Source: a virus
Lineage: Duplodnaviria; Heunggongvirae; Uroviricota; Caudoviricetes
Virus record (IMG/VR): IMGVR_UViG_3300030019_000001
DNA: 42,841 nucleotides
Reading direction: 5' to 3' (one strand)
A model generated the notes under the pieces. It did no database searches, was not told the origin of the DNA, and was given only the letters and a program-made list of their open reading frames with translations. Below are positions 2,227 through 39,352 of the stretch, piece after piece (the first letter of the stretch is position 1; every line of letters starts with the position of its first letter). The position numbers and the translations under genes were made by a program.

Positions 2227-2703
2227 TCAAATATTGAATTTTTTTGTATTATTTGAAAAATCATACTCCTTGATTGATAATTTTGTTATTAAATATGGGA
2301 TATCATCAATATCAACTGAACCACAAAAAGTATAATATTGTCCAGTTATATCATATGGTAAAAGTATATTTTTAATAAACAATAAGAATTTTTCACATCT
2401 TATCATATCTGTTATACTATTACCACTTTTAACTTCTATAGTAACATATGGATCATAAATAGAATATGAATCATATTCAACTAATTCAGATTCACAATTT
2501 TTAATCTCAAATGTAATGTAAAAAATTTTACTAAATGTATAATTGTCTTTATAAAAAATCAACTGATATTTATCATCTGAAAACCATTTTGATTCACAAT
2601 TAATATGCTCACCTTTCATTATATGTAAAAAAGTTCTAAGTATAGTTTTTGCTAATTTTTCTATATTATTATTTAAATTATACCTATTATAACTATCTAT
2701 CAT
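2227..2703 (-). CDS. Hypothetical protein with C-terminal ...KKFNI (terminal-cassette group B)
   Basis: 158-aa ORF of the same length as its neighbour; C-terminus NNTKKFNI-stop. Confidence 0.5.
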   Translation of the reverse strand: MIDSYNRYNLNNNIEKLAKTILRTFLHIMKGEHINCESKWFSDDKYQLIFYKDNYTFSKIFYITFEIKNCESELVEYDSYSIYDPYVTIEVKSGNSITDMIRCEKFLLFIKNILLPYDITGQYYTFCGSVDIDDIPYLITKLSIKEYDFSNNTKKFNI

Positions 2704-3500
2704 TTCAATTTATTTATTTTATCCTGAGATTTTTTGATTGAAATTTCAGCAGACTTTATTCTATCTTGTTTCCAATTTATATTTCTTTTTTTCCAATTAT
2801 CAATTCTACTATCAACATATTCTTTATTTCCTTTTTCCCAACTTTCTTTTGTGTTGTTCTGTTTAGCATAAGAATCAGAACTCAATGTTTCCCAAGTAGT
2901 CAATAAATGCCTACCATATTCTTCTTTAGATAATAAAATAAATATTTCTTCATCAGTCAATTTAATTGATTCTGAAATTTCTTTTTCACAAGAAGAAATT
3001 ATTGTTTTGTCATATTCTATATCCTTTTGAAGTTTTTCAATTTTATTTAATTTCTTAATTTTTTCTGAATAAAGAGAAGTCAGTTCAGAATTGTTAGTTT
3101 GAGGTAAAGTAGTTTTTGTGATATATCTATAATGAGCTTTTTGAATATTATAACCACCTGCAATTATAACTTCAGTAGAGAAATCATGAAGAATACCATC
3201 TCTTTTTATTTCTGAAATAATCTCCAAATTTCCTTTGTTGGAATATCTAGTTCTCAAATTAACAAGTTTATCTGTGGGTTTAGTATATTTTTCAATTGAT
3301 TTAACCAAATCAAATATTAAATATAGTAGAGTATTTTCTTTTTGAAATTCTGTGAAATACCTACCAGTTTCTTCAAAAAAACTTTCTTCGTATTTAATCA
3401 GTAAATCCTCCAATGTTGGTTCTATTATAGTAATGATCTTTTCAATTAGCTCATTTTTATGATTCATAACCGAAAAACTATTATAATTTAGAATGCTCAT
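2700..3500 (-). CDS. Hypothetical protein (266 aa, K/E-rich, predicted coiled-coil segments)
   Basis: Long ORF with an ATG start; overlaps its neighbour by 4 nt. Confidence 0.5.
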   Translation of the reverse strand: MSILNYNSFSVMNHKNELIEKIITIIEPTLEDLLIKYEESFFEETGRYFTEFQKENTLLYLIFDLVKSIEKYTKPTDKLVNLRTRYSNKGNLEIISEIKRDGILHDFSTEVIIAGGYNIQKAHYRYITKTTLPQTNNSELTSLYSEKIKKLNKIEKLQKDIEYDKTIISSCEKEISESIKLTDEEIFILLSKEEYGRHLLTTWETLSSDSYAKQNNTKESWEKGNKEYVDSRIDNWKKRNINWKQDRIKSAEISIKKSQDKINKLK

Positions 3501-4818: not shown

Positions 4819-5263
4819 TTCCGTTTAATTTTCTTTTCTTAATCATTTCTTCAATATATTGATCTGTAGGTAATTTAATATTTGGATCTATTTTTTTAAT
4901 AGTTTTATCAGAATTATCTTTAATACCTTCTTTTTCATTAATCTCTTTTACTATAGAAGCTAAATAATTTTCTGGACTCATTCTAGAATCATCATCAGTA
5001 TATATCATAGAATAAATAGTATCATCATTAAATATATAAAATTCTTTTGATGATAAAGTAAAATCTTGATAAAATATTAATTTTCCTATTGAACCATATG
5101 TCATAACTTGTGTACCTGTCATTTCCAAATATTTATTCATGAATGGATCTTTAATTCTAACAGTTTCTTGCTTCAAATCAATAAAATTAACACCCAAATC
5201 CATTTTAAATATTGGAATCTTTCTAAATATATTCAACATTTGTGTGTTTGATACTATTGTCAT
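4811..5263 (-). CDS. Hypothetical protein (150 aa)
   Basis: ORF with an ATG; 8-nt overlap with the downstream gene. Confidence 0.45.
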   Translation of the reverse strand: MTIVSNTQMLNIFRKIPIFKMDLGVNFIDLKQETVRIKDPFMNKYLEMTGTQVMTYGSIGKLIFYQDFTLSSKEFYIFNDDTIYSMIYTDDDSRMSPENYLASIVKEINEKEGIKDNSDKTIKKIDPNIKLPTDQYIEEMIKKRKLNGNG

Positions 5264-5814
5264 TGTGTATAAACATTATCTTTTAAATCATTTTGATCTG
5301 TTCCCTTATCATCTGATTTGTCTTTCAATTGACCTAATTTATCAATAATAAAATCTTCTTTTATATCTTCAACATCAACTTCTTCTACCAATTCACCCTT
5401 TTCTTCCATTTCATCATTGAATTGGTGAATTTTAAGCAATATTTTATTTATTTCTAATGCTTTACCTTCAGCTGGAGTTTCAACAGGAGCAGCTCCTTGT
5501 TCTTGTGATTGAGAATTATCAGAACCTTTCATCTCATCAAGTCTAACCATAAATATAACTCTATATCTAAAAAACGAATCCTCTTCTTCAGAATCTTTAT
5601 CTTTAGTTTCTTCAATAGGTTCAGAAAAATTAAAAATTAAAAATTTTTCCATTGGATTAGAATTTGAAATATCTATTTGTCCATCTAATGAGCAACCTTG
5701 AGCAGCTAATGAACCTTCATTAAACCATCTTTCAATTTGAGATTTCAATTCTTTAAAAAACACTGTTATTTTATAATCAGCAGATTCTACATATTCTTCA
5801 AAAAGTTTTTTCAT
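5260..5814 (-). CDS. Hypothetical acidic protein (184 aa, D/E-rich C-terminal half; N-terminus MKKLFEEYVES)
   Basis: ORF with an ATG; it carries the MK..FE-type N-terminus. Confidence 0.5.
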   Translation of the reverse strand: MKKLFEEYVESADYKITVFFKELKSQIERWFNEGSLAAQGCSLDGQIDISNSNPMEKFLIFNFSEPIEETKDKDSEEEDSFFRYRVIFMVRLDEMKGSDNSQSQEQGAAPVETPAEGKALEINKILLKIHQFNDEMEEKGELVEEVDVEDIKEDFIIDKLGQLKDKSDDKGTDQNDLKDNVYTQ

Positions 5815-5897
5815 TTATAATTATTATTATTTTAAAGTATATATAAAAAACACATCATAGAAAATAGTATAATTAAAAATTAATATATAATAGTCAT

Positions 5898-6221
5898 ATG
5901 AAACACATCAAATCATTTGAAGAAAAAATAAATAAAATATCAATAGATGAATTAAAAAATCATGGAATATCAAAAGATTCACCATTTTTGATTAGTGATA
6001 ATGAAAAATTACCAAAAGATACTAAATTTAAAATTGGAGATCATGTTAAAATAAATACAAATAACAATGAATATATCTACAAAATAGAATATTATTGTAT
6101 TGAAACTAAAAAATATACTTGCTTCATAACAATAGACACATTTTCAAGACAATGGATATATGAAGATGAATTAGAATTGGTTCCAGATTATGAAATATCA
6201 TCAAAAAAATTCAACATATGA
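5898..6221 (+). CDS. Small protein, terminal-cassette family A (MKHIKSFEE ... KIGDHVKI ... SSKKFNI)
   Basis: N- and C-terminal cassette; the stop TGA overlaps the next ATG (AACATATGAAA). Confidence 0.6.
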   Translation: MKHIKSFEEKINKISIDELKNHGISKDSPFLISDNEKLPKDTKFKIGDHVKINTNNNEYIYKIEYYCIETKKYTCFITIDTFSRQWIYEDELELVPDYEISSKKFNI

Positions 6222-6586
6222 AATATATTAAGAAATATGAGAACATAGATGAACATGTTAATGCAGAAGGTAAATTTTGGGAAATAAATACAGATGAACC
6301 ATATTTTGAAATCTCATTAAATAAACTTGGTTTTGATGAAGAGTTAAAGGAAAAAATATATGGAATGAATAACTCCTACATAAAAAATAGTGGATTAGTT
6401 TATATTTATATTATTAAAACAAATTTATCATACTTAGGCACATCAGTAACATGGAGTCATGTTACTGATTTCATAAAAGATACTGCAATAGAAAACGGTA
6501 ACAAATATATGGGAAAAGTTGAAATAACCGAAGATGATATTAAAAAATGGAATCTAATTAAAAAGACACAAAAATTCAACTTATGA
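6218..6586 (+). CDS. Small protein, terminal-cassette family A (MKYIKKYEN ... KKTQKFNL)
   Basis: Same cassette; ATGA overlap on both sides. Confidence 0.6.
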   Translation: MKYIKKYENIDEHVNAEGKFWEINTDEPYFEISLNKLGFDEELKEKIYGMNNSYIKNSGLVYIYIIKTNLSYLGTSVTWSHVTDFIKDTAIENGNKYMGKVEITEDDIKKWNLIKKTQKFNL

Positions 6587-7215
6587 AATACTTAAAAACA
6601 TATGAAGAAGGAATATCATCAGGTAATGCATCTGGAAAGGCAGGAGTAGGTTCGATTCCGTTTGGTAGAGGATATATGCAATCTGGTGGTAATAATGGAG
6701 CCAGTGGCATTGTATTCACTGCTGTTGGAGAACCATCATTCACCACATATAAAAGTATGAAGCATTCAAAAAAAGAATTAAAAGAGAAAAGAAGAAGACT
6801 TAGAATGTTCAAGAAATTCAGAAATGAAGGATTCATATCAGAAAAAATAGATGATTCTGGTTGGAATTGGGGAATAGTAAACAATGATAAAAATATTGGA
6901 AAATATATTATAATGAAAGATTCTGAAGAGTATTCATTCGCTTCAACCAAAGGAATAAGAAAAGAATTAGATACATTTGTTCAGAATAATACCGGAGAAA
7001 TAGTTTTATCAAGAAAATCAGCAGTTGGAATTTCTTATTTGATAAAATATGAAAATATACCAGACAATTTGAAAGAGCAATTTAAATCTTGCAATTTTTT
7101 AAATGATGAAGAAAATATATATTTACCTATAATAAAAAGACATAACAAAATTGAATTTATAGGTTCAAAAGAAGAATGTGAAATTAAAATATCAACAAAA
7201 AAATACAATATATAA
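6583..7215 (+). CDS. Terminal-cassette family A protein (210 aa; MKYLKTYEE ... Gly-rich GNASGKAGVGSIPFG ... ISTKKYNI)
   Basis: Cassette termini; shares the Gly-rich G..G.GSIPG segment with 7218-7610. Confidence 0.6.
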   Translation: MKYLKTYEEGISSGNASGKAGVGSIPFGRGYMQSGGNNGASGIVFTAVGEPSFTTYKSMKHSKKELKEKRRRLRMFKKFRNEGFISEKIDDSGWNWGIVNNDKNIGKYIIMKDSEEYSFASTKGIRKELDTFVQNNTGEIVLSRKSAVGISYLIKYENIPDNLKEQFKSCNFLNDEENIYLPIIKRHNKIEFIGSKEECEIKISTKKYNI

Positions 7216-7217
7216 AT

Positions 7218-7610
7218 ATGAAAAAATTTGAAGAATTTATGAAAGAAGATGCGTGTGCCACTCTCGGTAACACAGGAGGTATGGGCGCTATTGTAGCTGC
7301 TCAACCAGGAAGTATTCCTGGAACTCAAGGTACCACTGGCTCTGGTGATATTAGTCAAACTCTTGCCACATATTCTAAACCTGCTATAAATATGAAAAGA
7401 CATAAGAAAAACAAGAAAAATAAACTAAGAAAAGTAGAATCATTTGATGGTTTCATGAAGGAAGAAAATGAGATAATAGATAATTTCACAGCAAGATATT
7501 ACGACAATTATGATGACGAAGAAGAACCAAGTTATGAAGTAAATTTACAAGACATAGAAGAAAACAATATCAAAAAAATTCAAATGTACGAAAAAGATGA
7601 AAATAAATAA
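7218..7610 (+). CDS. Family A-related protein (MKKFEEFMKE ... GNTGGMGAIVAAQPGSIPGTQG ...) lacking the KFN(I/L) end
   Basis: Paralogous N-terminal half with 6583-7215. The C-terminus KDENK overlaps the next ORF by 14 nt, so this may be a frameshifted or fused family member. Confidence 0.45.
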   Translation: MKKFEEFMKEDACATLGNTGGMGAIVAAQPGSIPGTQGTTGSGDISQTLATYSKPAINMKRHKKNKKNKLRKVESFDGFMKEENEIIDNFTARYYDNYDDEEEPSYEVNLQDIEENNIKKIQMYEKDENK

Positions 7611-7893
7611 ATTTAACCAACTAAATGAATCAGATGAAATATCATACAATAAATCATTAGGATATGATAACTCAATGTTTGATAGTCTATCTGAATTGTA
7701 TAAATTATGGACAGACGCTGAAGGCTTATCTCATTTTTCAGCGGATGAATACGGATCAGAAGATTTGACAGATAAACAAATAGATTATTTAGAAAATTTT
7801 AATGATTTTTTGGAATTAACTCAAGACTTTGAACAAGATTATCATGAAAATGGTTATGCTTTAATTAAAAAAACAAAAAAATTTAACTTATAA
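7597..7893 (+). CDS. Small acidic protein ending ...KKTKKFNL (family A C-terminal cassette); the N-terminus MKINKFNQLNE contains an internal KFN remnant
   Basis: ORF; C-terminal cassette. Confidence 0.5.
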   Translation: MKINKFNQLNESDEISYNKSLGYDNSMFDSLSELYKLWTDAEGLSHFSADEYGSEDLTDKQIDYLENFNDFLELTQDFEQDYHENGYALIKKTKKFNL

Positions 7894-7999
7894 AATATGG
7901 ATAGCATAAGATCAAAATATCAGAAATATGGTGTTAAAAATTATTAAAGTGATAAAATACGCATCAAGTTTTTATATCACCGTAAATTAATATCAATTT

Positions 8000-8887
8000 T
8001 TATTTTTTATTCATATGAAAACAAATCTCGTTTAACCAACCACTTTTATATGATTTAGAATACGCACTAATAGATTTCATATAAAATTCAGATCTAGTCT
8101 TATATTTTAATGCTTCTATTTGACATAATTCTTTTGTCCAATAACCATTTGGTTTTACTAATGGTGTCATATGCAAACATATTTCTTTTAACCATTTATT
8201 TTTTAATGAAATTGTATATGCTGATGCTGATTGTTTTTTAAATTCAACTTTTGTATTAAATTTATTTGCTTCTATTTGACATAATTCTTTTGTCCAATAT
8301 TTTTTACCACCTGTTCCTCCTGTTTTACACTTATTTAAAATTTTCCAATCATTATTTTTATATTTATTAACATAATCCTCTTCTAATATTTTTGATAAAT
8401 AAACATCAATATATTCACTTAATTTTTTAAATTTATAATTATTATTTTTTTGTATATGTTCATAAACTGAGCCTTTTCTTAAATGTTCATTAAATCGTCT
8501 ATCTAAATCACAAGTCAATCCAATATATGCATAGTTATCAGAAAATTCATAAACATAAATACATCTTTTATATAAATCACCCATACACTTCATATGTGAG
8601 CATATTTCATCTATCCATCCATATATTAATGATTTACCATAAATATAACTTGAATTTTTCCTAAATTCATTTCTACTATTAAACTTCAAAGATTCTTTTT
8701 GACAAAAATCTTTTGTCCAGATATATGATTTATTTTTTCTCATATGAGCACAAACATCAAATATCCAATTATTTCTAATTGAGATTCCATATACTTGTTT
8801 ACATTTTATCCTAAATTCTTTTTTAGTTTTATATTTTAATGCTTCTTCAGTGCATTTTTCAATAGTCCATATTTTTTTATCTATCAT
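8000..8887 (-). CDS. GIY-YIG family endonuclease (homing-endonuclease-like) with two N-terminal and two C-terminal ~43-aa W.(K/E).C..E(A/S)LK(Y/F)..R.EF.......Y.....W..EIC.HM repeats
   Basis: Core CIYVYEFSDNYAYIGLTCDLDRRFNEHL (GIY...YIG...R...E). Repeats WTIEKCTEEALKYKTKKEF..., WTKDFCQKESLKFNSRNEF..., WTKELCQIEANKFNTKVEF..., WTKELCQIEALKYKTRSEF... Confidence 0.8.
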   Translation of the reverse strand: MIDKKIWTIEKCTEEALKYKTKKEFRIKCKQVYGISIRNNWIFDVCAHMRKNKSYIWTKDFCQKESLKFNSRNEFRKNSSYIYGKSLIYGWIDEICSHMKCMGDLYKRCIYVYEFSDNYAYIGLTCDLDRRFNEHLRKGSVYEHIQKNNNYKFKKLSEYIDVYLSKILEEDYVNKYKNNDWKILNKCKTGGTGGKKYWTKELCQIEANKFNTKVEFKKQSASAYTISLKNKWLKEICLHMTPLVKPNGYWTKELCQIEALKYKTRSEFYMKSISAYSKSYKSGWLNEICFHMNKK

Positions 8888-8983
8888 ATAAGTTATTTTT
8901 AAGTATATATTAAAAACTAATTATCATAAACTAAATAAAATAAAAATAATTAATTTTATATATAATAAAAATAATTAATTTTA

Positions 8984-9532
8984 ATGAAACACATCAAATC
9001 TATACATGAACATGGAATTAGAGATGAATACACAAAAATTGGTATTAAAAAATATTATACTGATAATAAAGAAACATATATTAATCCGCATGAAGATAAT
9101 ATCAAATTAGTATTGAATTGGTGTTTAAAAAAAATTAATATAACAAACTTTATTGATTTGTCATGTGGCAATGGAGAAATAACCAAATATTTATCTAAAA
9201 ATGGAATAATTGATGCAATTGGCACAGATCCATATTTTAATAATATTTATACAAAAAAAACAGGAAATGAATGTTTAAAACTTTCATTCGAGGATATAGC
9301 AATACATGGATTAAATTTACACAAACAAACAATTATCTGTTCGTATGCACTTCATCTATGCACCAACTCATATTTTAATCAGTTGATGTATAATTTATCA
9401 TTAAACTGTAAATATTTCATTTTAATATCACCAAGTAAATACCCAATCATCACAGAAGATTATTTTGAATTTATTGATGGAATAATTATCAATAGAACAC
9501 ATTGTAAAATATATAAAAGTAAAAATAATTAA
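8984..9532 (+). CDS. Putative class-I SAM-dependent methyltransferase-like protein
   Basis: Motif I-like IDLSCGNGEITKYL, then IIDAIGTDP and IICSYALH. N-terminus MKHIKSIHE. Identification rests on the motifs only. Confidence 0.4.
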   Translation: MKHIKSIHEHGIRDEYTKIGIKKYYTDNKETYINPHEDNIKLVLNWCLKKINITNFIDLSCGNGEITKYLSKNGIIDAIGTDPYFNNIYTKKTGNECLKLSFEDIAIHGLNLHKQTIICSYALHLCTNSYFNQLMYNLSLNCKYFILISPSKYPIITEDYFEFIDGIIINRTHCKIYKSKNN

Positions 9533-9601
9533 ACAATAACATTTTTTCTAAACAATTATAATAAAAATTCATATAATATTATAAAATAAAAATATAATAT
9601 A

Positions 9602-10594
9602 ATGGACTATAATAAGGATTATTATAAAGATCTAGGATTAAATAAAGATTCATCTGATGAAGAAATCAAAAAGAAATATCGAAAATTAGCATTAAAACAC
9701 CATCCAGATAAAAATCAAGGTGACAAAAATAGTGAGGAAAAATTCAAAATCATATCAGAAGCATATGAAGTATTATCTGACGATACAAAAAAGCAAGAAT
9801 ATGACACAAGAAGTCCTAATGGTAAATCATATTCATCATTCAATTCAAGTTTTTTTGGTGGTGGGCAAGACATATTCTCTCATTTCTTTGGTGAAAATAG
9901 TCCATTTGGTAATTTTTTTAGATCAGAAGAATTCACTGAGCAATTAGATATCAGTATAAATGTCAATATAGATTTTAAGCAAATATACAAAAATGATAAA
10001 ATTACAATAAAATATAAGAAATTTATAAATTGTGATGAATGCGATGGCACAGGATTTGATAAATCTGGAGAATCATATGATTGTGTTGTATGTGATGGTA
10101 CAGGAATAAATAACAACAGAGATTGTGAATATTGTCAAGGAACTGGAAAAATACACAGCGGAAAATGTAAAAAATGTAATGGAGAAAAAGTAATCATAAA
10201 AGAAACAGAACTACTTTTACAAAATATTTCAGAAATTAGGGGATCAAACAGAAATGTTCAATATGGTTATGGTAGTCAATCAAAATACTACAAAGATAAA
10301 GTAGGTAGCCTAATTTTAAATATAAACAGTATAAATAACAGTAAATGTAACATTATAAATAATTATGATTTGATATCAACATTAGACATACACTTTCAAG
10401 ATGCTATTGATGGAAACAAAATAAATTATACACACGTTGATGATTCAAAATTAGAAATAAAATTACCAAATAAAACTAAAAATAACGACACAATAAAAAT
10501 AAAAGAAAAAGGTTTATTGAAGCAGGATGGTAAACGTGCAGATTTATATTTAAAAATAAATATAATCATAGACTATGATAAATTAAATATATAA
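9602..10594 (+). CDS. dnaJ: DnaJ/Hsp40 type-I co-chaperone (J domain, G/F region, four CxxCxGxG zinc-finger repeats, C-terminal domain)
   Basis: [33 protein letters not shown] (HPD), a FGG/FF-rich linker, then [32 protein letters not shown]. Confidence 0.85.
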
Positions 10595-15337: not shown

Positions 15338-15386
15338 GAACAAATTATTATTTTTATTATATATTATTTTATTAGACTAAAAATAC

Positions 15387-28081: not shown

Positions 28082-28429
28082 ATGAAATATTTAAAAAATT
28101 TTGAAAATGAATTAACCACTGAATATAAAGTAGGTGATTATGTATCAATTAACTATGATACAAAATCTAACACATTAACAAAGTTGAAGGATTTTGTGAA
28201 TAATTCGATAGGAAAAATAATGTTTATTGATGATAAAAGTATGATTATTCAATATGTTAATATTCCAGATAAAATAAAACATTTTTTTTCTGATAAAAAT
28301 GTTGGAAAAGATAAAATAAAAAATTCTGTATTTTTTTGGAATAAAAATAATACAATAAAAAGATTAGCAACAGATGATGAGATAATAGAATATGAAGCAA
28401 TTAAAAATACAAACAAATTTAACATATGA
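28082..28429 (+). CDS. Small protein, terminal-cassette family A (MKYLKNFENELTTEYKVGDYVSI ... KNTNKFNI)
   Basis: Cassette termini; close paralog of 28426-28767. Confidence 0.6.
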   Translation: MKYLKNFENELTTEYKVGDYVSINYDTKSNTLTKLKDFVNNSIGKIMFIDDKSMIIQYVNIPDKIKHFFSDKNVGKDKIKNSVFFWNKNNTIKRLATDDEIIEYEAIKNTNKFNI

Positions 28430-28767
28430 AGCACTTAAGATTATTTGAAAGCCAACTAAAGCCTAAATATAAAGTAGGAGATTATGTTCATTTAGATATG
28501 GAGCCAGATTTTACTTATGATGATTGCTTAGGACAAATACTTAAAATAGATAAAAACGGATTCATAAACGAACCTGAAGAAACAGATTCAAATAAAAAAC
28601 ATGATAATTATATTAACACATTAAATCTTTACCCATATAAAGTTAAAATATTGGATGGTAAATTCGATGCTGAAGAAGGCTTAATAGATAGATATATGAA
28701 AAAAGATGAAATAGAATATTTTGAGTATTTATTAAAGAATAAAGATACTAAAAAATTTAACATATGA
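28426..28767 (+). CDS. Small protein, terminal-cassette family A (MKHLRLFESQLKPKYKVGDYVHL ... KDTKKFNI)
   Basis: Cassette termini; ATGA overlaps on both sides. Confidence 0.6.
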   Translation: MKHLRLFESQLKPKYKVGDYVHLDMEPDFTYDDCLGQILKIDKNGFINEPEETDSNKKHDNYINTLNLYPYKVKILDGKFDAEEGLIDRYMKKDEIEYFEYLLKNKDTKKFNI

Positions 28768-29542: not shown

Positions 29543-29887
29543 TTATATATTAAATTTATTTGTAGTGAATAAAAAATTCAACTCATCAAAAGTTTTTATC
29601 ATCCAATTATTTCTATTAGCCCATTGGTGATCATTGTATTTGTGTATTACAATATCTAATCTATCGTTGGCTAATTCAATTGTAGTAAAACTTTCAATGT
29701 TGGTATTTTTCTTTTTAAGGATATCTATATTACTTGAATCAATTTTGTCAGTAAGAACAAATTCTTCAATTCCAAGAATTATTTTATATAATATAAAATA
29801 ATCTCCTTCATCTGGTTTGAATAAAACTAAGAAATATTTTTCTTTTTCTTTTTTTCTTTTAAATATATTAAATTTTTCAATTATCAT
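29543..29887 (-). CDS. Terminal-cassette group B protein (about 115 aa from ATG MIIEKFNIFKRKKEK...; ends FTTNKFNI). The track ORF extends to a TTG at 29932, through a duplicated copy of the start region.
   Basis: C-terminal KFNI; the N-terminus lies inside a 52-bp tandem duplication. Confidence 0.5.
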   Translation of the reverse strand: MIIEKFNIFKRKKEKEKYFLVLFKPDEGDYFILYKIILGIEEFVLTDKIDSSNIDILKKKNTNIESFTTIELANDRLDIVIHKYNDHQWANRNNWMIKTFDELNFLFTTNKFNI

Positions 29888-29950
29888 AATTATATATTTT
29901 CTTTTTTCTTTTAAATATATTAAATTTTTCAATTATCATAATTATATATT
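29856..29950. repeat. Two direct copies of a 52-bp unit (ttttcttttaaatatattaaatttttcaattatcataattatatatt) duplicating the 5' end and start codon of gene 29543-29887
   Basis: Copy 1 is at about 29856-29898 and copy 2 at about 29908-29950. Each contains the reverse-complement ATGATAATTGAAAAATTTAATATATTTAAAAG. Confidence 0.8.
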
Positions 29951-30373
29951 AAATTTTCTTGTTGATATTATCCATGATGGAGTATAATTTACAGCATTTA
30001 AAAATAAATAGTATGAAAAAATGAAATATGAACTTTTCCAAACCAGTGATGTTTTATTTGTATATTCTTCTATTTCATAATATAATTTTGGTGTTTCTTC
30101 TATTTTCGTTATCACAGAATCTAATGTATATTTTTTTACTTCTCTTTGTATTTTTTTATTTGTTTTTTTATTATCTGTTTTCCAAATATATGGATATTTA
30201 TACATAAATATTAATAGTGCGAATTCATCATAACAAGAATATGGTATACCTCTATATGTGAAACTATCAGTTATATTTTCTTCATATTTCTTTTTATATA
30301 TTTCTTCATAATTATTTAGAAATTTTTCAGTATCAGAACTAATTTTTATAGAGGAATTTATTTTTGAGTTCAT
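29942..30373 (-). CDS. Hypothetical protein (143 aa) ending ISTRKFNI (terminal cassette)
   Basis: ORF with an ATG; C-terminal KFNI immediately followed by the duplicated start region of the next gene. Confidence 0.5.
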   Translation of the reverse strand: MNSKINSSIKISSDTEKFLNNYEEIYKKKYEENITDSFTYRGIPYSCYDEFALLIFMYKYPYIWKTDNKKTNKKIQREVKKYTLDSVITKIEETPKLYYEIEEYTNKTSLVWKSSYFIFSYYLFLNAVNYTPSWIISTRKFNI

Positions 30374-30455
30374 ATATTATTTTTATTTATAATTATATTT
30401 CGCAAAGATACAAAAAAAATATAACCTTTACTAATAATTATCATCTTTTATATTA

Positions 30456-30893
30456 TTATAAGTTGAATTTATTTGAGATTCTTGTTAAATTCATTTCATT
30501 GATTACTTTTTTCTGTTTTTCTGTAATATTACCATAAATAGTAAATGATGATTTATTGTCAACATGGTAAATATAATTATCATTTGTAGTTAATATTAAT
30601 GATAATAGAACAAATATTCTTTTCTTGTGTTGTAAAGTGCCTTGATATCCAGTCGTACACTCTGTTATGGTGTTGATTCTACCTTTAACTATTTGAGGTA
30701 CATCTATAAAAATATTTTTTTCTTTATCATAACAATTCTTACAATTAAATTCAACTAATGTATCAACTATCAACAAATTACTAAGAAATTTTTTAATTTT
30801 CGTGTAACTACCAGAATAGTAATTTAACAAATCATTTAGTATGAATGTTGTTTCGGTTTCTGTATTTTCAAATATTTTGAAATTTATAATCAT
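30456..30893 (-). CDS. Terminal-cassette group B protein (MIINFKIFENTE ... EFNCKNCYDKEKN ... TIYGNITEKQKKVINEMNLTRISNKFNL)
   Basis: Clear paralog of 31308-31727 (same N-terminus, CxxC, TIYGNI and C-terminus). Confidence 0.6.
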   Translation of the reverse strand: MIINFKIFENTETETTFILNDLLNYYSGSYTKIKKFLSNLLIVDTLVEFNCKNCYDKEKNIFIDVPQIVKGRINTITECTTGYQGTLQHKKRIFVLLSLILTTNDNYIYHVDNKSSFTIYGNITEKQKKVINEMNLTRISNKFNL

Positions 30894-30894
30894 A

Positions 30895-31311
30895 TTAATT
30901 AATTTTTTTCCTTAAATAATTAAAAACAATTTCAAAAAATATCAGTTTAATTGAAAATGCCAACATAACAAACCAAATAGATGTATTCAATGTGATTATA
31001 ACAGATGCAAGAATCATAGTTATTTCAGATATAAACCAAAATAAATGCCATGCATCAGTAAACACAACAAAAATAGTAGTACTTCCTATGAATTTTTCTC
31101 CATTTAATGGATTGGCATTTTTATATTTATTGAGAGACCCCAATCCTTGTTCCCAAAATTTTGGATTTAATTTATATTTTAAATATAATCTTGACTTGTA
31201 AAATAAATTAGGAGAAGATGATATATCAGTTATAGATTTAGATATACCAGATATTAATAATAAAAAAAGTATTATTAAAATGTTTAAAATTGCTGAAGTA
31301 GTTAGTATCAT
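30895..31311 (-). CDS. Predicted multi-pass membrane protein (138 aa) embedded between two group B paralogs
   Basis: Hydrophobic segments MILTTSAILNILIILFLLLISGI and ITMILASVIITLNTSIWFVMLAFSIKLIFF; its start overlaps the KFNI-TGA of the upstream gene. Confidence 0.5.
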   Translation of the reverse strand: MILTTSAILNILIILFLLLISGISKSITDISSSPNLFYKSRLYLKYKLNPKFWEQGLGSLNKYKNANPLNGEKFIGSTTIFVVFTDAWHLFWFISEITMILASVIITLNTSIWFVMLAFSIKLIFFEIVFNYLRKKIN

Positions 31312-31727
31312 ATGTTAAATTTATTTGCTTGTCTTTTTATATTAATATCATTTATTATTTTTTTTATATCACCAGGAATATTTCCATAAATTGTCATCTG
31401 AGAATTTGTGTCTACTATATGACTAAATTTTATTCTTTTCAATCTCAATGTTAAGTATATATGTTTAAGATCATAATTAAATCCATAACTTCTACCGTTT
31501 ATAATTCCTTTATGATGTTTATTTGAATGTATAAAATTTGTAACACCATTTATATCATCTGTACATTTATTACAATTAAATTCAACAATGTTATTGTTGA
31601 AATTAAATAATTTGAAAATGAAATTTCGTATTGAATCTTCATGACTATCAAAGTAATCTACAATATCATCCAATACCAATGTGACTTTATCATCTGAGTT
31701 CTCGAATAATTTGAATTCTGTTATCAT
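31308..31727 (-). CDS. Terminal-cassette group B protein (MITEFKLFENSDD ... EFNCNKCTDDING ... TIYGNIPGDIKKIINDINIKRQANKFNI)
   Basis: Paralog of 30456-30893. Confidence 0.6.
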   Translation of the reverse strand: MITEFKLFENSDDKVTLVLDDIVDYFDSHEDSIRNFIFKLFNFNNNIVEFNCNKCTDDINGVTNFIHSNKHHKGIINGRSYGFNYDLKHIYLTLRLKRIKFSHIVDTNSQMTIYGNIPGDIKKIINDINIKRQANKFNI

Positions 31728-31741
31728 GCTGATATATATAA

Positions 31742-32920
31742 TTATTTGAATTTGTTTTTTAATACTTGATATTGAGATTTAACAGAATAATAAGACCTAT
31801 TTAATTTTTTAGCACAACATTTTATTCCTATATGATAATTTTCAATTAAAAAAATAATATCATCTTCTGGCCATGAATTTTTTCTTTTTTTTGCTATCAT
31901 ATGAGAGCATATATCTTTATACCATTCATTTTTAATTGCAGATGCTGCTGCACTACTATTGTTTTTTAGAAAATCATCTTTATAAATATATTTTGATGCC
32001 TCGTATTTACATTTTTCATATGTCCAAAATTTAGCAGATCCTCCTAATGTACTTTTTTTGTTAGTATTTAATAATTTCCAATTATTATTTTTGTATTCAT
32101 TCATATAATATTCTTCCAATTTCTGTGCTTCTGATTTATTAATATAGTCAGTTAATTGTATCAATTTATATTTATTGCTTGCTTTTTGTAAATGTTTGTA
32201 AATTGGACCTTTTTTAATATGCTCCTGCTCTCTAATTTTTATATTATATGTCAATCCAATATATGCACAATTATCATCAAATTCAAAAGCATAAATACAT
32301 CTAAATTCTTTACTACCAATTTTTATCATATGTGAACAGATATCATTAGATATATTATTTACATTTGAAAAATTATAAGCACCTCTATATTTTTTTTGAA
32401 AATCATTTCTACTATTACACTTTAATGCTTCTTCTTTGCATTTATCATAATTCCAATAATTATTAACATAAGTCATATGATTACAAATTTTTTCTATCCA
32501 TTTTTTTGAAATAGATATTCTATATGCACTAGCATCATTTTTTCTAAAATCAGTTCTGGTTAAATATTTTAATGCTACTTCTTGACATTTTTCTATTGTC
32601 CAGTAATTATTAGGTTTATGACTTAAATTCATATGAGAACAAATACTATTTAGCCAATTATTTTTTAATGACTTATTATATGCAGTTGCTTCATTTTTTT
32701 GAAAATCTGATATAGAATTATAATTTAATGCTGCTTCTTGACATTTATTGTGTGTCCAATGTCCTGGAGTATTAATTTTATATTTCATATGTGAACAAAC
32801 AATATTTAAATATTTATTTTTTACACAAGCATTATATGCTAAATTATCTAATTTTTTAAAATCACTTCTATATTCATATTTTAATGCTGCTTTTTGACAT
32901 ATTTCTAATGTCCATTTCAT
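31742..32920 (-). CDS. GIY-YIG family endonuclease (homing-endonuclease-like) with four N-terminal and one C-terminal ~43-aa W..E.C..(A/E)AL.Y..R.DF.K...AY.....W...IC.HM repeats and a C-terminal helix-turn-helix-like tail
   Basis: Core FRCIYAFEFDDNCAYIGLTYNIKIREQEHIKKG. Repeats WTLEICQKAALKYEYRSDF..., WTHNKCQEAALNYNSISDF..., WTIEKCQEVALKYLTRTDF..., WNYDKCKEEALKCNSRNDF..., WTYEKCKYEASKYIYKDDF.... Tail NSWPEDDIIFLIENYHIGIKCCAKKLNRSYYSVKSQY. Confidence 0.8.
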   Translation of the reverse strand: MKWTLEICQKAALKYEYRSDFKKLDNLAYNACVKNKYLNIVCSHMKYKINTPGHWTHNKCQEAALNYNSISDFQKNEATAYNKSLKNNWLNSICSHMNLSHKPNNYWTIEKCQEVALKYLTRTDFRKNDASAYRISISKKWIEKICNHMTYVNNYWNYDKCKEEALKCNSRNDFQKKYRGAYNFSNVNNISNDICSHMIKIGSKEFRCIYAFEFDDNCAYIGLTYNIKIREQEHIKKGPIYKHLQKASNKYKLIQLTDYINKSEAQKLEEYYMNEYKNNNWKLLNTNKKSTLGGSAKFWTYEKCKYEASKYIYKDDFLKNNSSAAASAIKNEWYKDICSHMIAKKRKNSWPEDDIIFLIENYHIGIKCCAKKLNRSYYSVKSQYQVLKNKFK

Positions 32921-33089: not shown

Positions 33090-36000
33090 ATGAAAATTGC
33101 TCACTTAGCTGATGTTCACATTAGAAACCTTGAAAGACATGAAGAATATAATGATATTTTTCAAAAAATAATAAAAAAATTACGCAAAATTACACCAGAT
33201 AGAATTGTTATTGTTGGTGATTTATTTGAAAGTTATATTGAAATTTCAAATGAAGCTGAAATTATAGCTGGAAATTTCTTAAATGAATTATCAAAAATTG
33301 CTAAAGTTATAATAGTTCGTGGTAATCATGATATTCGTAAGAAAAATTTAAATAGAATCGACAGCATAGAAACTGTAGTTAAACTAATGAATAATCCAAA
33401 TGTTACTTATTATGATAAAACTGGATTTTATGATGATAAGCAAGATAACAATTTTGTTTGGGTTGTTTATGAACACTCAGATAAAGACAACGATCCATGG
33501 AAAAATATTAAAAAATATGATGGTAAAATATATATTGGGTTATTTCATGACCCAGTTTTAAATGTAACATCAAATACTGGTAAAGTTTTTAATGATGCAA
33601 ACAAGTACAAAAATATGAATTATTTTAATAATAATGATTTTGTGCTAATAGGTGATATCCACAAGCGTCAGTATTTAAGAAATGATAAATCTGCTGCATA
33701 TTGTGGCTCAACTATACAACAATCATATGGTGAAACAATTGAAAATCATGGTTTTTTATTATGGGATATAAAATCACCATCAGATTTTGATGTCACTGAA
33801 TATGATATTGACAATGAACACACTTTCATAAATCTTTATATTGATGAATCATCAGATTATGACAATTTAAATTTGTCTGCTGATAAAATTGGAACAGATA
33901 CTGAAATTAAAGTTCATTGGAAAGAATATTCATCAATTATAAATACTGTTAATGAAAAGAAAATAAGAGATTATATTAAAAATAAATTTAGCACAACTAA
34001 AGTTATTTTTGAAAAAGTTTATTTATACACAGATATATTATCATCAAAAATGCTATCAGAATCAATTGATTTGACTGATACTGAAACACAGAAAGAAATA
34101 TTTAATGAATATTTAGAAGAGCAAAAATACAAAAAAGATGATATTGAATCTATTCTTAAAATTGATGATATAATAAATAGTAGAGTTCAATTGGTAGAAT
34201 GCTTAAAAAATACTGAATGGAGTATTGATAAATTCTGGTTTAGTAATTTTAAATCTTATGGAGATGATAATGTTATAGATTGGGCTGATATTAATGGAAT
34301 TGTACAAATTCATGGAGAAAATCAGGAAGGTAAAACAACTATTTTAGATGCACTTACTTATATTCTTTATGGTAAGACTACGACAACATTAAGTCCTGAA
34401 AAATTTGGAGATTCAAGATATATAAATAACAAAAGAGATTTAGATTATGTTAATGGTGGTGCAATTATTAATTCAAATGGTAATAAATTCGTTATTCAGA
34501 GAAAGACAGAAAGAGTTTGGAATAAGAATCACACGGCATTAACAAGCTGTCCTACATCATTGGATTTTTATAAAAGCGAGAATATTTGTGAAGAAAATAA
34601 ATTAACAGATGAAATTAAAGCTAAGACTCAAAAAGAATTGGACTCTATTTTAGGAGATTTGAAAGATTTTATTAGATTGTCATTCACTAATGCTGATAAT
34701 TTAAATGATTTATTATCAGAAAATAGAAGTGTATTTATGGATAACATCATCAGAGATGCTGGTTATGATATTTTTGAAATTAAATTGAATGAATTTAAAG
34801 AATATAAAAAAGAATTAGTAGAAGAAAAATTAATAGTAAATATTCAAGATTCTGAATCTCGTGTGAAAGAATTGAATACTGAAATTATTGATATTAAAGA
34901 TATTATTGATACTAATAATTCTGATATTGAGAAGCATGAAAAAGAATTATCTGATTATAATACAGATAGAGATAATTTAAATAAAAAATTAAATAATATT
35001 GATTTATCAATGTTAACTTTTAATGAAGATTTAAATTTGAATACCATCAACAATTATGAATCTAAAATTGAAGAATCTAAAATTCAAAGCACAATTTTAG
35101 ATAGAGACATTGATAAATTACCTACTGAATTCGATTCATCTAAACTTGATGAATATAAAATTAAATTGAAGCAAACGAACTTGAAAATTTCTGAACGAAA
35201 AGATGAAATTTCAAATTTGAAAACTTCATTATTAGAATCTGATAATAAAATAGATAAAGTTAATATTAAAATTGATGAATTAAAACAATCTGAAATTAGA
35301 AAAATATCATCAAAAATAAATGCAAATGATTTACAAATTGAAGTTATTAAAAATAATAAATCTAATATCATAAAGGATGAAATAAAAAAAATAACATCAG
35401 AAATTCAAGAATTAGAATTAAATTTAAAAGAATTATCATCTAATATAAAATTATTACAAAAAGATGGAGTTAACGCTAAAAATTCAAATGAGGAATTAGA
35501 TAAAGAAATAGAAACATTCAAAAATTCAAAATCTTGTCCTAGCTGTGGTAGAGATTATGATAAAAATGATCCAAAATATTCAGAACACTTAGCTCATTTA
35601 GAAGATAAAATTAAAAGTCTTGAAATTAAAAAAGAACCAAATTCTTTGATAATTAAAGATTGTATATTAAAGTATAAAGATTTAAAAAATGAATCTATTG
35701 AATGTAATACAAATATTCTTAATTTGGAAGACATGAAAAAAAGGTTAATTCAAGGAGAATACCCTGATGATATATTATCTAAATTGAAAGAAATTGGTAG
35801 CAGTAAGAAGTTGACTCAAGACAATTTAGATTTAAATAAATTAATAGAAAAAATTGAGAATAACATATTTGATGAATCTGAAACATTAAATGAAAATATT
35901 GAGAAAGGGAAAGAACTAATAAAAAACATAGAAAAAGGCAAATTAGATACATCAATTGTAATAAAAAATATTGAGTCTGAATTGAAAAATTTTAATGTTG

Positions 36001-36845
36001 AAGGTATAGATGATGATATTTCAATTGAGGAAACTAAGAAAGATAATTTTGAGTTAAGAAACAGAAAAATGTCAAATAGAGATAATATTATTTTATCAAT
36101 CGAAAATTTTAATTTTAAAATAAAAGAACTAAAATTAGAAATAGAAAAATATCAAGAATATAAAGTTAAAATAGATGAAAATAAAATTATTCAATTATCA
36201 ATAGATGATGTGGATAATAATATTAAAGTCGTTAAAGAACAAATAAAAAATTTATCACAAATAAATATAGAAATGGAAAAAAATATTATACTCAAAGAAA
36301 ATGATATTTTTATAATTTCAACTAAGATAAAAAAATATTTAAAACAAAAGAAAAAAGATGAGTTATTAAAGGAGTATCAAAAATGTATTAGTCGTGATGG
36401 ATTACCTACTTTTTTATTGAAAAAGTCTATTCATTTAATTAATAAAGAATTGAATGAATTATTAATAAATGTTAATTTTACATTATTTTTTGATGATAAT
36501 TTAAATTTAAGGCTTAGTGCAGATGATAGGCTAGATTCCAGTCAAAATGCAATTGAAAGTTCTGGAAAAGAAAGAACATTTTGTGCTCTTGCATTGAAGA
36601 TAGCATTACGACAAATAAATGTCAAATCAAAATCTACGTTTATTGTATTGGATGAAATTATGGGTAAATTAATTGATGGTAAAAAAACAAAATCTGTTCA
36701 GCAATTTTTAGAATTTATTGATGAGTTGAAAAATAAAGTAAATAAAATTGTAATTATTGAACAGGTGCATAGTATAAATTTTGATGCATCAATTGAAGTT
36801 GATAAAGACGAAGAATTAGTTTCTCACTTAGAATTAGTTTATTAA
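33090..36845 (+). CDS. Single-chain Mre11/SbcD nuclease fused to a Rad50/SbcC ABC-ATPase with a coiled coil and CxxC zinc hook (1251 aa)
   Basis: Phosphoesterase motifs HLADVH, VGDLFE, RGNHD, GLFHD, IGDIHKRQ in the first ~230 aa. Walker A GENQEGKTTILDALTYILYGKT. Long K/E/N-rich coiled coil with zinc hook SKSCPSCGRDY. Signature-like SSGKERTFCALAL, Walker B FIVLDEIMG, H-loop VIIIEQVHS. Confidence 0.8.
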   Translation: MKIAHLADVHIRNLERHEEYNDIFQKIIKKLRKITPDRIVIVGDLFESYIEISNEAEIIAGNFLNELSKIAKVIIVRGNHDIRKKNLNRIDSIETVVKLMNNPNVTYYDKTGFYDDKQDNNFVWVVYEHSDKDNDPWKNIKKYDGKIYIGLFHDPVLNVTSNTGKVFNDANKYKNMNYFNNNDFVLIGDIHKRQYLRNDKSAAYCGSTIQQSYGETIENHGFLLWDIKSPSDFDVTEYDIDNEHTFINLYIDESSDYDNLNLSADKIGTDTEIKVHWKEYSSIINTVNEKKIRDYIKNKFSTTKVIFEKVYLYTDILSSKMLSESIDLTDTETQKEIFNEYLEEQKYKKDDIESILKIDDIINSRVQLVECLKNTEWSIDKFWFSNFKSYGDDNVIDWADINGIVQIHGENQEGKTTILDALTYILYGKTTTTLSPEKFGDSRYINNKRDLDYVNGGAIINSNGNKFVIQRKTERVWNKNHTALTSCPTSLDFYKSENICEENKLTDEIKAKTQKELDSILGDLKDFIRLSFTNADNLNDLLSENRSVFMDNIIRDAGYDIFEIKLNEFKEYKKELVEEKLIVNIQDSESRVKELNTEIIDIKDIIDTNNSDIEKHEKELSDYNTDRDNLNKKLNNIDLSMLTFNEDLNLNTINNYESKIEESKIQSTILDRDIDKLPTEFDSSKLDEYKIKLKQTNLKISERKDEISNLKTSLLESDNKIDKVNIKIDELKQSEIRKISSKINANDLQIEVIKNNKSNIIKDEIKKITSEIQELELNLKELSSNIKLLQKDGVNAKNSNEELDKEIETFKNSKSCPSCGRDYDKNDPKYSEHLAHLEDKIKSLEIKKEPNSLIIKDCILKYKDLKNESIECNTNILNLEDMKKRLIQGEYPDDILSKLKEIGSSKKLTQDNLDLNKLIEKIENNIFDESETLNENIEKGKELIKNIEKGKLDTSIVIKNIESELKNFNVEGIDDDISIEETKKDNFELRNRKMSNRDNIILSIENFNFKIKELKLEIEKYQEYKVKIDENKIIQLSIDDVDNNIKVVKEQIKNLSQINIEMEKNIILKENDIFIISTKIKKYLKQKKKDELLKEYQKCISRDGLPTFLLKKSIHLINKELNELLINVNFTLFFDDNLNLRLSADDRLDSSQNAIESSGKERTFCALALKIALRQINVKSKSTFIVLDEIMGKLIDGKKTKSVQQFLEFIDELKNKVNKIVIIEQVHSINFDASIEVDKDEELVSHLELVY

Positions 36846-37711: not shown

Positions 37712-39352
37712 TTATAAATGGATTAGTTGTTGTACCCCTGTTATAGTAGGTATACTATTTACATTTAATGCAATTTCAATAATTCCATCAATTTCTAATA
37801 ATGATGTATTTAAATGAGTTGAATCTCCACCTATATTACTTAATTTGATTTCATCTATAAAATGTCCCCATCTTGGACGATCTGTTGTTCCTGTTACAGA
37901 AATTGTTTGTGGTATAGTCAATTCAGAATTGAATGTTTGTCCTGATTGGTTATAACCTTTACTGTAATTTACATAATAGTTTAATGCAAATGTTCCTGAA
38001 ATTGCTGTACCATTATGACTCCAATGTGTGTGTAAATATATATCAGAGTTTGGTAAATAATCATGTGGCATATGATATGTAATATTATCTATCTTATCAT
38101 TAACTTGAAATGTATAATTAAGTATATTAGTTCCTCTTAACGGTGATAATGAAGGAGCAGTAGATCCACCAACCCTTGGTATTATCTGACCGATTAAATC
38201 TTTATATCCAAATGTCGGTGTTGTATTGTCTATCATTATACCTGTTCCTGACAACTTTGGTAATATTAAATTACCATTTAAATTTAATAATGAATTATGA
38301 TATGTTAATCCACTTTCAACATTTACATTTGGAGATGATACATTTAATGTAAGTAGTCCATAATTCGTTGTACCATTTAATGATACTGTTCCTGAACTTC
38401 CTGATGTTCCATTGGTTCCTGAACTTCCTGATGTTCCATTGGTTCCTGAACTTCCTGACGTTCCATTCGTTCCTGATGTTCCATTTGTGCCTGAACTTCC
38501 TGATGTTCCATTTGTTCCTGACGTTCCATTTGTTCCTGACGTTCCATTCGTTCCTGATGTTCCATTTGTGCCTGAACTTCCTGATGTTCCATTTGTTCCT
38601 GATGTTCCATTTGTTCCTGACGTTCCATTTGTTCCTGACGTTCCATTCGTTCCTGATGTTCCATCTGTTCCTGAACTTCCTGATGTTCCATTCGTTCCTG
38701 ATGTTCCATCTATTCCTGATGTTCCATCTATTCCTGATGTTCCATCTATTCCTGATGTTCCATCTATTCCTGATGTTCCATCTGTTCCTGAACTTCCCGA
38801 TGTTCCATCTGTTCCTGAAATTCCTGATGTTCCATCTATTCCTGATGTTCCATCTATTCCTGAAGGACCAGGAGCACCATTTAATGATACATTCCAAAAA
38901 TTATATGTTCCGCTACCAATAGATGAAGTAATATTTGAAAATATTTCACCTGTTATTTTATTATATGATAATATATAATTTATCATTAAATTTGATGAGT
39001 CATGTGTTATTATAATATCTTGTCCTGTAGATAATGATAAATTAGGCTCAACAAAAAATGATATTGTACCTCCTGTTGATATTTCTAATGTATTATTCGA
39101 AAATGTAGTATATTTATCTCCACTTAATCCATTTGTTCCTGAACTTCCATTTGTTCCTGAACTTCCATTTGTACCTGATGTTCCATCTGTTCCTGATGTT
39201 CCATCTGTTCCTGAACTTCCATTTGTTCCTGAACTTCCATTTGTTCCTGATGTGTGAGAAATGCCAGATAGAGATTCTAAATATGAAAAATTACCGTCCA
39301 TTTCGGTTATAGTTAATCTTTCTCCTTTTTGTTGTCTTAAAATTAAACTCAT
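37712..39352 (-). CDS. Collagen-like triple-helix repeat protein (two G-X-Y blocks, about 45 and about 150 residues, of GT(S/N/D)G(S/T)SGT type) with a C-terminal globular domain of about 230 aa
   Basis: GTNGSSGTDGTSGTDGTSGTNGSSGTNG... and GPSGIDGTSGIDGTSGISGTDGTSGSSGTDG... runs. Repeats at the DNA level generate four spurious overlapping ORFs. Confidence 0.8.
   Translation of the reverse strand: MSLILRQQKGERLTITEMDGNFSYLESLSGISHTSGTNGSSGTNGSSGTDGTSGTDGTSGTNGSSGTNGSSGTNGLSGDKYTTFSNNTLEISTGGTISFFVEPNLSLSTGQDIIITHDSSNLMINYILSYNKITGEIFSNITSSIGSGTYNFWNVSLNGAPGPSGIDGTSGIDGTSGISGTDGTSGSSGTDGTSGIDGTSGIDGTSGIDGTSGIDGTSGTNGTSGSSGTDGTSGTNGTSGTNGTSGTNGTSGTNGTSGSSGTNGTSGTNGTSGTNGTSGTNGTSGSSGTNGTSGTNGTSGSSGTNGTSGSSGTNGTSGSSGTVSLNGTTNYGLLTLNVSSPNVNVESGLTYHNSLLNLNGNLILPKLSGTGIMIDNTTPTFGYKDLIGQIIPRVGGSTAPSLSPLRGTNILNYTFQVNDKIDNITYHMPHDYLPNSDIYLHTHWSHNGTAISGTFALNYYVNYSKGYNQSGQTFNSELTIPQTISVTGTTDRPRWGHFIDEIKLSNIGGDSTHLNTSLLEIDGIIEIALNVNSIPTITGVQQLIHL
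38400..38880. repeat. Coding 9/18-bp (G-X-Y) tandem repeats of the collagen-like gene (the major block; a minor block is at about 39121-39255)
   Basis: ggaacatca/ggaacgtca/ggaacatcagg units repeated. Confidence 0.8.

Follow-up and report, generated by a model that had tools for sequence, protein, structure and literature searches.

The stretch analysed here, called the window, comprises the whole 42,841 nucleotides (nt) of IMG/VR virus record IMGVR_UViG_3300030019_000001; it has a G+C content of 24% and comes from a very large, AT-rich virus, probably a phage. We have focused on a minus-strand gene at 8000-8887, called as an open reading frame (ORF) of 295 amino acids (aa), which encodes a free-standing GIY-YIG endonuclease with two 43-aa repeat units on each side of a single catalytic core. 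Units 1 (aa 7-49, 8741-8869) and 2 (aa 57-99, 8591-8719) stand before the core, units 3 (aa 198-240, 8168-8296) and 4 (aa 250-292, 8012-8140) after it, all of them on the minus strand, and they were recognized by a hidden Markov model (HMM) built from homologues with i-Evalues of 2e-20, 3e-21, 6e-22 and 9e-23, respectively. Between the two pairs the Pfam family PF01541 matches aa 109-178 (8354-8563, minus strand), and a four-copy repeat family found in the DNA of the gene proved to be the same four units. The ORF, the Pfam match and the four HMM matches together bear out the layout put forward in the original prediction, as well as its description of the gene as lying on the minus strand between a plus-strand array of paralogs, whose proteins end in ...K[FY]N[IL], and a 182-aa methyltransferase-like gene. 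The identical 295-aa protein is encoded on 15 contigs, the longest of 711 kb, and the seven loci that were inspected share their context as far as the flanks reach. In the following, metagenomic relatives of the locus are designated L0xx and homologous proteins P0xxx; the closest homologues of the nuclease, P0008 (71% identity) and P0021 (67%), both have the layout of two plus two units, and the unannotated family phrog_20046 matches the protein with E=1e-59.

The core belongs to the GIY-YIG superfamily, since the motif pair and the Arg, Glu and Asn residues are present and the model contains a three-stranded sheet with helices; the PF01541 match (E=2e-5, 25.1 bits) is above the gathering cut-off of 22.6. 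In the AlphaFold2 model, calculated from a 120-sequence alignment, the mean predicted local distance difference test (pLDDT) score was 93.8 and that of the core was above 95, and the strands (E) and helices (H) of the core follow each other in the order expected for a GIY-YIG domain (E107-115, E119-125, H128-137, H139-145, E151-155, H162-178). Y111, Y121, G123, R131, E169 and N185 are all found in the window protein; 90% or more of 120 homologues share each of them. We take Y111, Y121, R131, E169 and N185 to be the canonical catalytic residues of the superfamily (as in I-TevI and UvrC), and since this conserved set is intact the nuclease is probably active. When the model core was compared with the PDB by Foldseek, GIY-YIG domains of UvrC were the sole matches, with target-normalised template modelling (TM) scores of 0.52-0.58 and weak E-values (0.8-2.8); in BFVD the nearest viral structural neighbours outside the nuclease's own family were I-TevI-like, SegD-like and intron-associated phage endonucleases.

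Each repeat unit is folded in the AlphaFold2 model into a compact bundle of four short helices. From the 120 best homologues 668 full-length units were collected, which gave the consensus WTKExCxEEALKYxTRxEFxKxSxxAYxxAxxNGWLDEICSHM with a dominant start-to-start spacing of 52 aa. The conserved residues are mainly aromatic and aliphatic (W1 95%, C6 95%, F19 95%, Y27 91%, W35 92%, C40 91%, H42 98%, M43 95%), positions 7, 17, 20, 24, 28, 29 and 31 are hypervariable, and the units are basic, with a mean net charge of +2.5 per unit. The number of units varies among the relatives from 0 to 6 on the N-terminal and from 0 to 8 on the C-terminal side of the core. With its period of about 52 aa, its W-T-x-E start, its three spaced aromatics (W1, F19, W35) and its helical character the unit presumably recalls the Myb/SANT domain; membership in that family was rejected, as neither the three-helix homeodomain-like fold nor a profile match was found.

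The original prediction had suggested that an HMM of the unit be scanned against the databases; a known named domain would have spoken against it. Among 1.84 billion representative proteins the unit profile had at least 9,394 matches at E<=1e-3 and 7,124 at E<=1e-10, each match standing for a protein cluster at 50% identity, and as many as 18 units were counted in one protein. Besides phages the family occurs in diverse bacteria: an exact degenerate pattern for WLDEICSHM, run against genome contigs, located it in bacterial genomes and metagenome-assembled genomes of Bacteroidota, Pseudomonadota, Bdellovibrionota and Clostridia. No named domain corresponds to it in Pfam, NCBIfam or the PDB, and PHROGs returned only the unannotated phrog_20046; sub-threshold Pfam matches (SERRATE_Ars2_N, DUF5413, DUF7667 and others) were dismissed as spurious, and NCBIfam gave nothing. 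No description of the repeat was found in the literature, including the 2006 GIY-YIG survey and a TALE-like repeat screen, a coverage that is incomplete, so that an earlier description may exist. A repeat without a name, a structure or a known literature is present in at least 9,394 protein clusters of phages and diverse bacteria.

In 231 of the 253 repeat-rich proteins examined the units accompany a GIY-YIG core. Partner domains were searched for on the repeat-masked segments, where one protein had a ResIII/DEAD helicase domain (E=1.6e-12) and another a sub-threshold match to a PD-(D/E)xK restriction-endonuclease-like domain. In two proteins the non-repeat segment looks MUG113/T5orf172-like by eye, its sole Pfam match being weak (E=0.076), and several GIY-YIG repeat proteins have an additional N-terminal Cys/His-rich head, zinc-ribbon-like by eye and without a Pfam match. 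Since the units are basic and are fused mostly to a GIY-YIG core and once to a helicase domain, a role in DNA targeting is plausible; the earlier suggestion that the repeats form a DNA-targeting arm may be kept in this form, as a judgement from charge, composition and domain partners. It would be a long shot that the unit represents a new class of modular DNA-recognition repeat, each copy reading a short block of bases through positions 7, 17, 20, 24, 28, 29 and 31. If it did, arrays of 4-18 units around a nuclease or helicase would spell out long target sites, and the family would be a targeting system from nature that could be deciphered and re-programmed, much as TALE repeats can, and that already comes joined to a compact monomeric nuclease. 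Modular binding of DNA by the arms would likewise make the family a large natural library of compact, monomeric nucleases with long sites and a possible programmable scaffold.

The original prediction had also pointed to the Cys/His pattern of the unit as a possible metal site. According to this idea each 43-aa unit is a Cys2-His metal-binding mini-domain in which the metal is needed for folding or for DNA recognition; C6 (95%), C40 (91%) and H42 (98%) are indeed among the most conserved positions, and C6 lies at the opposite end of the unit from C40 and H42, the short helices of the unit being packed compactly together in the models. Nevertheless the conserved candidate ligands are three and not four, and the cysteines are lost independently of each other: among 598 distinct units, a single one of C6 and C40 is missing in 79 and both are missing in 4, close to the expectation for independent loss. 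The replacements are L, V or I at position 6 and T, S or F at position 40, as is typical of buried packing positions, and AlphaFold folds the unit confidently without metal, although this is weak evidence. Because the cysteines disappear one by one and give way to hydrophobic or small residues, a metal site as the defining feature of the repeat is not supported, and we regard it as rather unlikely. C6 and C40 look more like buried packing positions than like parts of an obligate metal site, an interpretation which does not explain the near-invariant H42.

Units 3 and 4 share the stretch WTKELCQIEA together with a long run of identical DNA, as had been noticed before, the run being 33 nt against the earlier estimate of about 30: a patch at the 5' end of unit 4 (8111-8143, minus strand) is identical to a patch at the 5' end of unit 3 (8267-8299, minus strand), both located by comparison of DNA repeats. 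In the other 17 of the 18 unit pairs of the window gene and its two orthologues the longest identical run is 7-20 nt. A very recent internal duplication had been concluded from this. Over their full length the identity between units 3 and 4 is no more than 63% in protein and 70-72% in DNA, while each orthologue unit has its best counterpart in the window unit of the same position; same-position identities between the window protein and P0008/P0021 are 72-79% for unit 1, 67% for unit 2, 56-70% for unit 3 and 60-72% for unit 4. A recent tandem duplication is therefore ruled out by position orthology across three lineages and by the limitation of the identity to 33 nt. As the units are position-orthologous in three viruses, the two-plus-two layout is older than the split of these viruses; since the run is identical in units that have otherwise diverged, it is most simply explained by a short tract of gene conversion, in the lineage of the window, between units that adjoin each other.

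The divergent partner of the nuclease gene, separated from it by an intergenic region (8888-8983) which is conserved in two other nuclease-carrying lineages, encodes the 182-aa class-I S-adenosylmethionine (SAM) methyltransferase-like protein (8984-9532, plus strand; weak Pfam matches to Methyltransf_23/25). It belongs to a family of 86 proteins with the D-L-x-x-G-x-G motif (SAM motif I), in which D58, G62 and G64 of motif I, D82-P83 and the triplet N34-P35-H36 are invariant. Neither the (D/N/S)PP(Y/F) nor the PC motif of DNA methyltransferases occurs in an alignment of 44 family members. Among solved proteins its nearest relatives, with weak E-values, are ToxA, BamL, a type 12 methyltransferase and TehB-like enzymes, the first three (E 1e-2 to 3e-4) being small-molecule, peptide or unspecified methyltransferases; a scan of IMG/VR for the gene found no relatives. 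The protein has the MKHIK start that is also seen in small paralogs of the window. In the window the gene is placed tail-to-head upstream of a DnaJ gene (9602-10594), and in L017 (1499-3673) a methyltransferase gene stands head-to-head with a DnaJ homologue and has no nuclease gene, so that the DnaJ adjacency recurs in differing orientations.

For comparison of the locus 28 metagenomic loci with the methyltransferase-like gene were collected. A nuclease gene about 100 nt upstream of the methyltransferase gene, in divergent orientation, was found only in the window, in L016/L008 and in L024/L011-14. Conversely, in 15 AT-rich relatives with enough upstream sequence the methyltransferase gene is present and no nuclease gene or repeat remnant accompanies it; one of them, L015, has the methyltransferase closest to that of the window (82% aa), and in L019 only 62 nt lie between the methyltransferase gene and its neighbour. 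The comparison of the interval 7894-8983 with related genomes, which had been proposed as a check of mobility, revealed presence in three lineages and absence at 15 loci.

The unit that the carriers share is larger than the nuclease gene. According to blastn a two-gene cassette (7995-9533) is the extent of DNA homology with the other carriers (76-78% nt), namely 7995-9521 against L016 and 7989-9533 against L024, with unrelated flanks; the homology starts 5-11 nt past the stop codon of the nuclease gene and ends at the end of the methyltransferase gene. In L019, L021, L022, L038 and L011/L024 the methyltransferase gene is located between homologues of the window genes at 25430-26143 (RuvC-like) and 27176-28078, whereas the corresponding window interval (26143-27176) contains an HNH-like gene only, and the nuclease/methyltransferase pair stands about 17 kb away. 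Of the intergenic homing insertion originally proposed, the hallmarks of mobility are seen; a simple insertion into the gap that separates the paralog array from the methyltransferase gene is not, as the shared unit consists of both genes and most relatives have their methyltransferase gene at another locus.

In a comparison of the occupied locus L024 with the empty L022, the homology reaches no further than 37 nt upstream of the methyltransferase ATG, and these 37 nt are all that the two share there. In L024/L011 the nuclease gene has a full copy of the methyltransferase gene on one side and a 56-codon 5' remnant of such a gene on the other; the remnant breaks off directly in front of SAM motif I, and it overlaps with the stop codon of the nuclease gene. 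The remnant is of the MKYIKEYG allele class and 90% identical to L020, the full copy is of the MKYIKPIYEYG class and 93% identical to L022, and the two are 83% identical to each other. Such a chimera would be expected if a nuclease plus methyltransferase segment had recombined into the methyltransferase gene of another genome, and it suggests that the break was made in that gene or close to it. In L038 only the last repeat region of the nuclease (aa 221-292) is left, fused to methyltransferase codons 119-182, which makes it a decayed copy. As judged by these alignments, presence/absence polymorphism, a degenerate copy and a chimeric junction allele, which are hallmarks of homing genes, all occur at this locus. 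Occupied, empty, chimeric and decayed sites are seen together with a passenger gene relocated along with the nuclease, so that the history of a homing element in nature can be followed unusually clearly in this local comparison of uncultured giant-genome viruses.

The methyltransferase-like gene itself is probably the landing gene or a co-converted passenger of the nuclease. It can evidently be dispensed with, being truncated in L038 and apparently frameshifted in L027, where the gene (5001-5506) matches in two frames, and it evidently recombines often; in L015 the ORF (2282-3088) has 268 aa, with about the first 9 codons replaced and unrelated sequence after the homology. Our guess for the target is a site in or just upstream of the methyltransferase gene, possibly near codon 56, before SAM motif I, or near position -37.

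Alternatively, the nuclease and the methyltransferase-like protein might be a restriction-modification-like or addiction pair, in which the methyltransferase protects the carrier and the two spread as a selfish module. The shared homology coincides exactly with the two genes, the nuclease at this locus is never without the methyltransferase gene in three lineages, and loci with the methyltransferase only are common, like orphan methylases; moreover GIY-YIG restriction enzymes exist, Eco29kI being one and Cfr42I another. The partner is nevertheless not DNA-methyltransferase-like, neither in its motifs nor in its nearest solved relatives, and this reading was rejected on that ground. It is further weakened by the joint loss of both genes in L038 and by the frameshift in L027, which give no sign of post-segregational constraint, and by the second paralog and phage homologues adjoining other genes (Mre11/Rad50-like, primase). 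We consider it very improbable.

The second paralog of the nuclease in the window (31742-32920, minus strand; 392 aa), recognized as an ORF with the repeat HMM, is composed of four units, a GIY-YIG core, one unit and a C-terminal tail. It is adjoined by a small paralog gene and the Mre11/Rad50-like gene. L065 represents the empty site for this paralog: orthologous flanking genes stand 78 nt apart and no repeat units are found there. Among Vibrio phages of the Schizotequatrovirus type, of near-identical size (about 247 kb), the family is present in 1 to 6 copies, and the primase gene of a Rhizobium phage is flanked on either side by genes with the annotation GIY-YIG nuclease. The tail of the second paralog (aa 346-392, 31742-31882; WPEDDIIFLIENYHIGIKCCAKKLNRSYYSVKSQYQVLKNKF) has the look of a single Myb/SANT- or helix-turn-helix (HTH)-like helix bundle, and the 295-aa first paralog has no such C-terminal tail.

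Taken together, we consider it probable that the gene at 8000-8887 is a free-standing GIY-YIG homing-type endonuclease gene, with a single core between two arms of tandem 43-aa four-helix units. As far as we could find, no such architecture, with the nuclease in the middle and an array of an unnamed repeat on each side, had been described before. In the proposed mechanism the basic arms would attach to the DNA on both sides of the cut site and place the nuclease between them at its target; the nuclease would then break the nuclease-less allele of a co-infecting related virus, and recombinational repair from the carrier genome would copy in the nuclease gene and, with it, the methyltransferase-like gene next to it.

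Another reading would be a resident viral nuclease that serves in the degradation of host or competitor DNA, in recombination or in repair, its patchiness reflecting ordinary gain and loss in a hypervariable region; its repeats would then attach to protein, RNA or DNA with no preference for particular sequences. In its favour, the orthologues are intact at 67-71% identity and have kept the four-unit layout, which indicates that purifying selection has acted for long; lineage-specific small paralogs and rearrangements abound in the surrounding region, and in L015 and L017 the methyltransferase gene has moved in the absence of the nuclease gene. On the other hand, the nuclease keeps to one position with respect to a single gene although the wider contexts differ, the junction of remnant and full copy is a chimera of two allele classes, and the second paralog has a clean empty site in L065. 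The copy number of 1-6 among Vibrio phages of near-identical size and the homing endonucleases as closest viral structural neighbours likewise speak against a resident enzyme. We therefore hold a resident nuclease, jointly with such non-specific repeats, to be unlikely.

The interval from which the methyltransferase gene is missing in the window may be a hot spot for mobile genes of another kind. PHROG families match both the RuvC-like and the HNH-like gene of the window; the HNH-like protein (26290-27183, plus strand; 297 aa) is matched by phrog_5104 (E=2.5e-21) and more weakly by phrog_559 (HNH endonuclease), and its first 95 aa or so are common to proteins of 331-565 aa in relatives (L022 2794-4206 and 6088-7149; L038 1392-3089; L014 2518-3513). 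Around the methyltransferase gene, within the stretch bounded by the RuvC-like and the 300-aa gene, the places of these genes differ from locus to locus, and one of the proteins has a DUF7487 domain. They look like a second family of mobile endonuclease genes.

Next to the second paralog, a gene of 1251 aa (33090-36845, plus strand) encodes, according to Pfam, a fusion of an Mre11/SbcD-type phosphoesterase and a Rad50/SbcC-type ATPase; its best phage matches are in jumbo and huge phages (Tenacibaculum PTm1, Sphingomonas PAU, LR756508). P0389, a homologue of this fusion, carries an intein-splicing Pfam domain, so that this gene family is also a target of mobile elements. Further on, a 546-aa protein has collagen triple-helix repeats (37712-39352, minus strand; Pfam E=1e-31). 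Thirteen small genes (98-210 aa) at 1394-2703, 5898-7893, 28082-28767 and 29543-31727 share a C-terminal motif, mostly [ST]xK[FY]N[IL]; many of them start with MK(H/Y)(I/L)K and they are often joined by overlapping stop and start codons (ATGA). No Pfam or PHROG match was obtained for the members looked at, and they form a large lineage-specific paralog family.

No tRNAs were found in the window, and the mimivirus-type early promoter AAAATTGA is not enriched in it (17 found, 20.6 expected). A very large phage is the more likely source of the window, though its relatives encode ankyrin repeats as well. A recurrent TATATA(T/A)A...AAAAA element is located about 15-45 nt upstream of many starts, including those of both the nuclease and the methyltransferase genes (examples are at 8950-8975, 5815-5897, 15338-15386, 25378-25429 and 19841-19900), and no Shine-Dalgarno-like sequence is visible. 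The element may represent the kind of promoter that the virus uses.

Among known systems, the GIY-YIG type II restriction-modification systems (Eco29kI, Cfr42I, Hpy188I) likewise have the nuclease next to a gene with a methyltransferase fold, in a mobile pair. Unlike theirs, the partner described here has no DNA-methyltransferase motifs and resembles small-molecule methyltransferases, and other members of the nuclease family have unrelated neighbours. Cfr42I is described as a GIY-YIG restriction enzyme in PMC2241918. With TALE, PPR and Pumilio proteins the arms have in common that they are arrays of short helical units of fixed period, in which a conserved scaffold carries a few hypervariable positions per unit and the length of the array varies.

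Also close are the free-standing phage GIY-YIG homing endonucleases (T4 SegA-G and the I-TevI/I-BmoI class). They have the same Tyr/Tyr/Arg/Glu/Asn core and likewise combine the nuclease with a separate targeting region; likewise they are encoded by stand-alone genes between viral genes, next to a conserved gene; they are distributed sporadically, are known also from degraded copies and are transferred along with DNA from their flanks. GIY-YIG homing endonucleases are commonly portrayed with the nuclease at the N-terminus and a DNA-binding region tethered to it at the C-terminus. In I-TevI and I-BmoI, according to PMC3664794, the nuclease is N-terminal and the DNA-binding region, made up of linker, zinc finger, NUMOD/IENR helices and HTH, is C-terminal. 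Unlike in this class, the core of the window nuclease is central (aa 105-190) and helical units stand on both sides of it, in a number which is variable in the family; the NUMOD, IENR and HTH families of Pfam have no match at E<=10 in the window protein, nor at E<=0.1 in eight homologues. Though its architecture is not the one that defines the I-TevI/Seg class, the gene behaves like a homing endonuclease gene.

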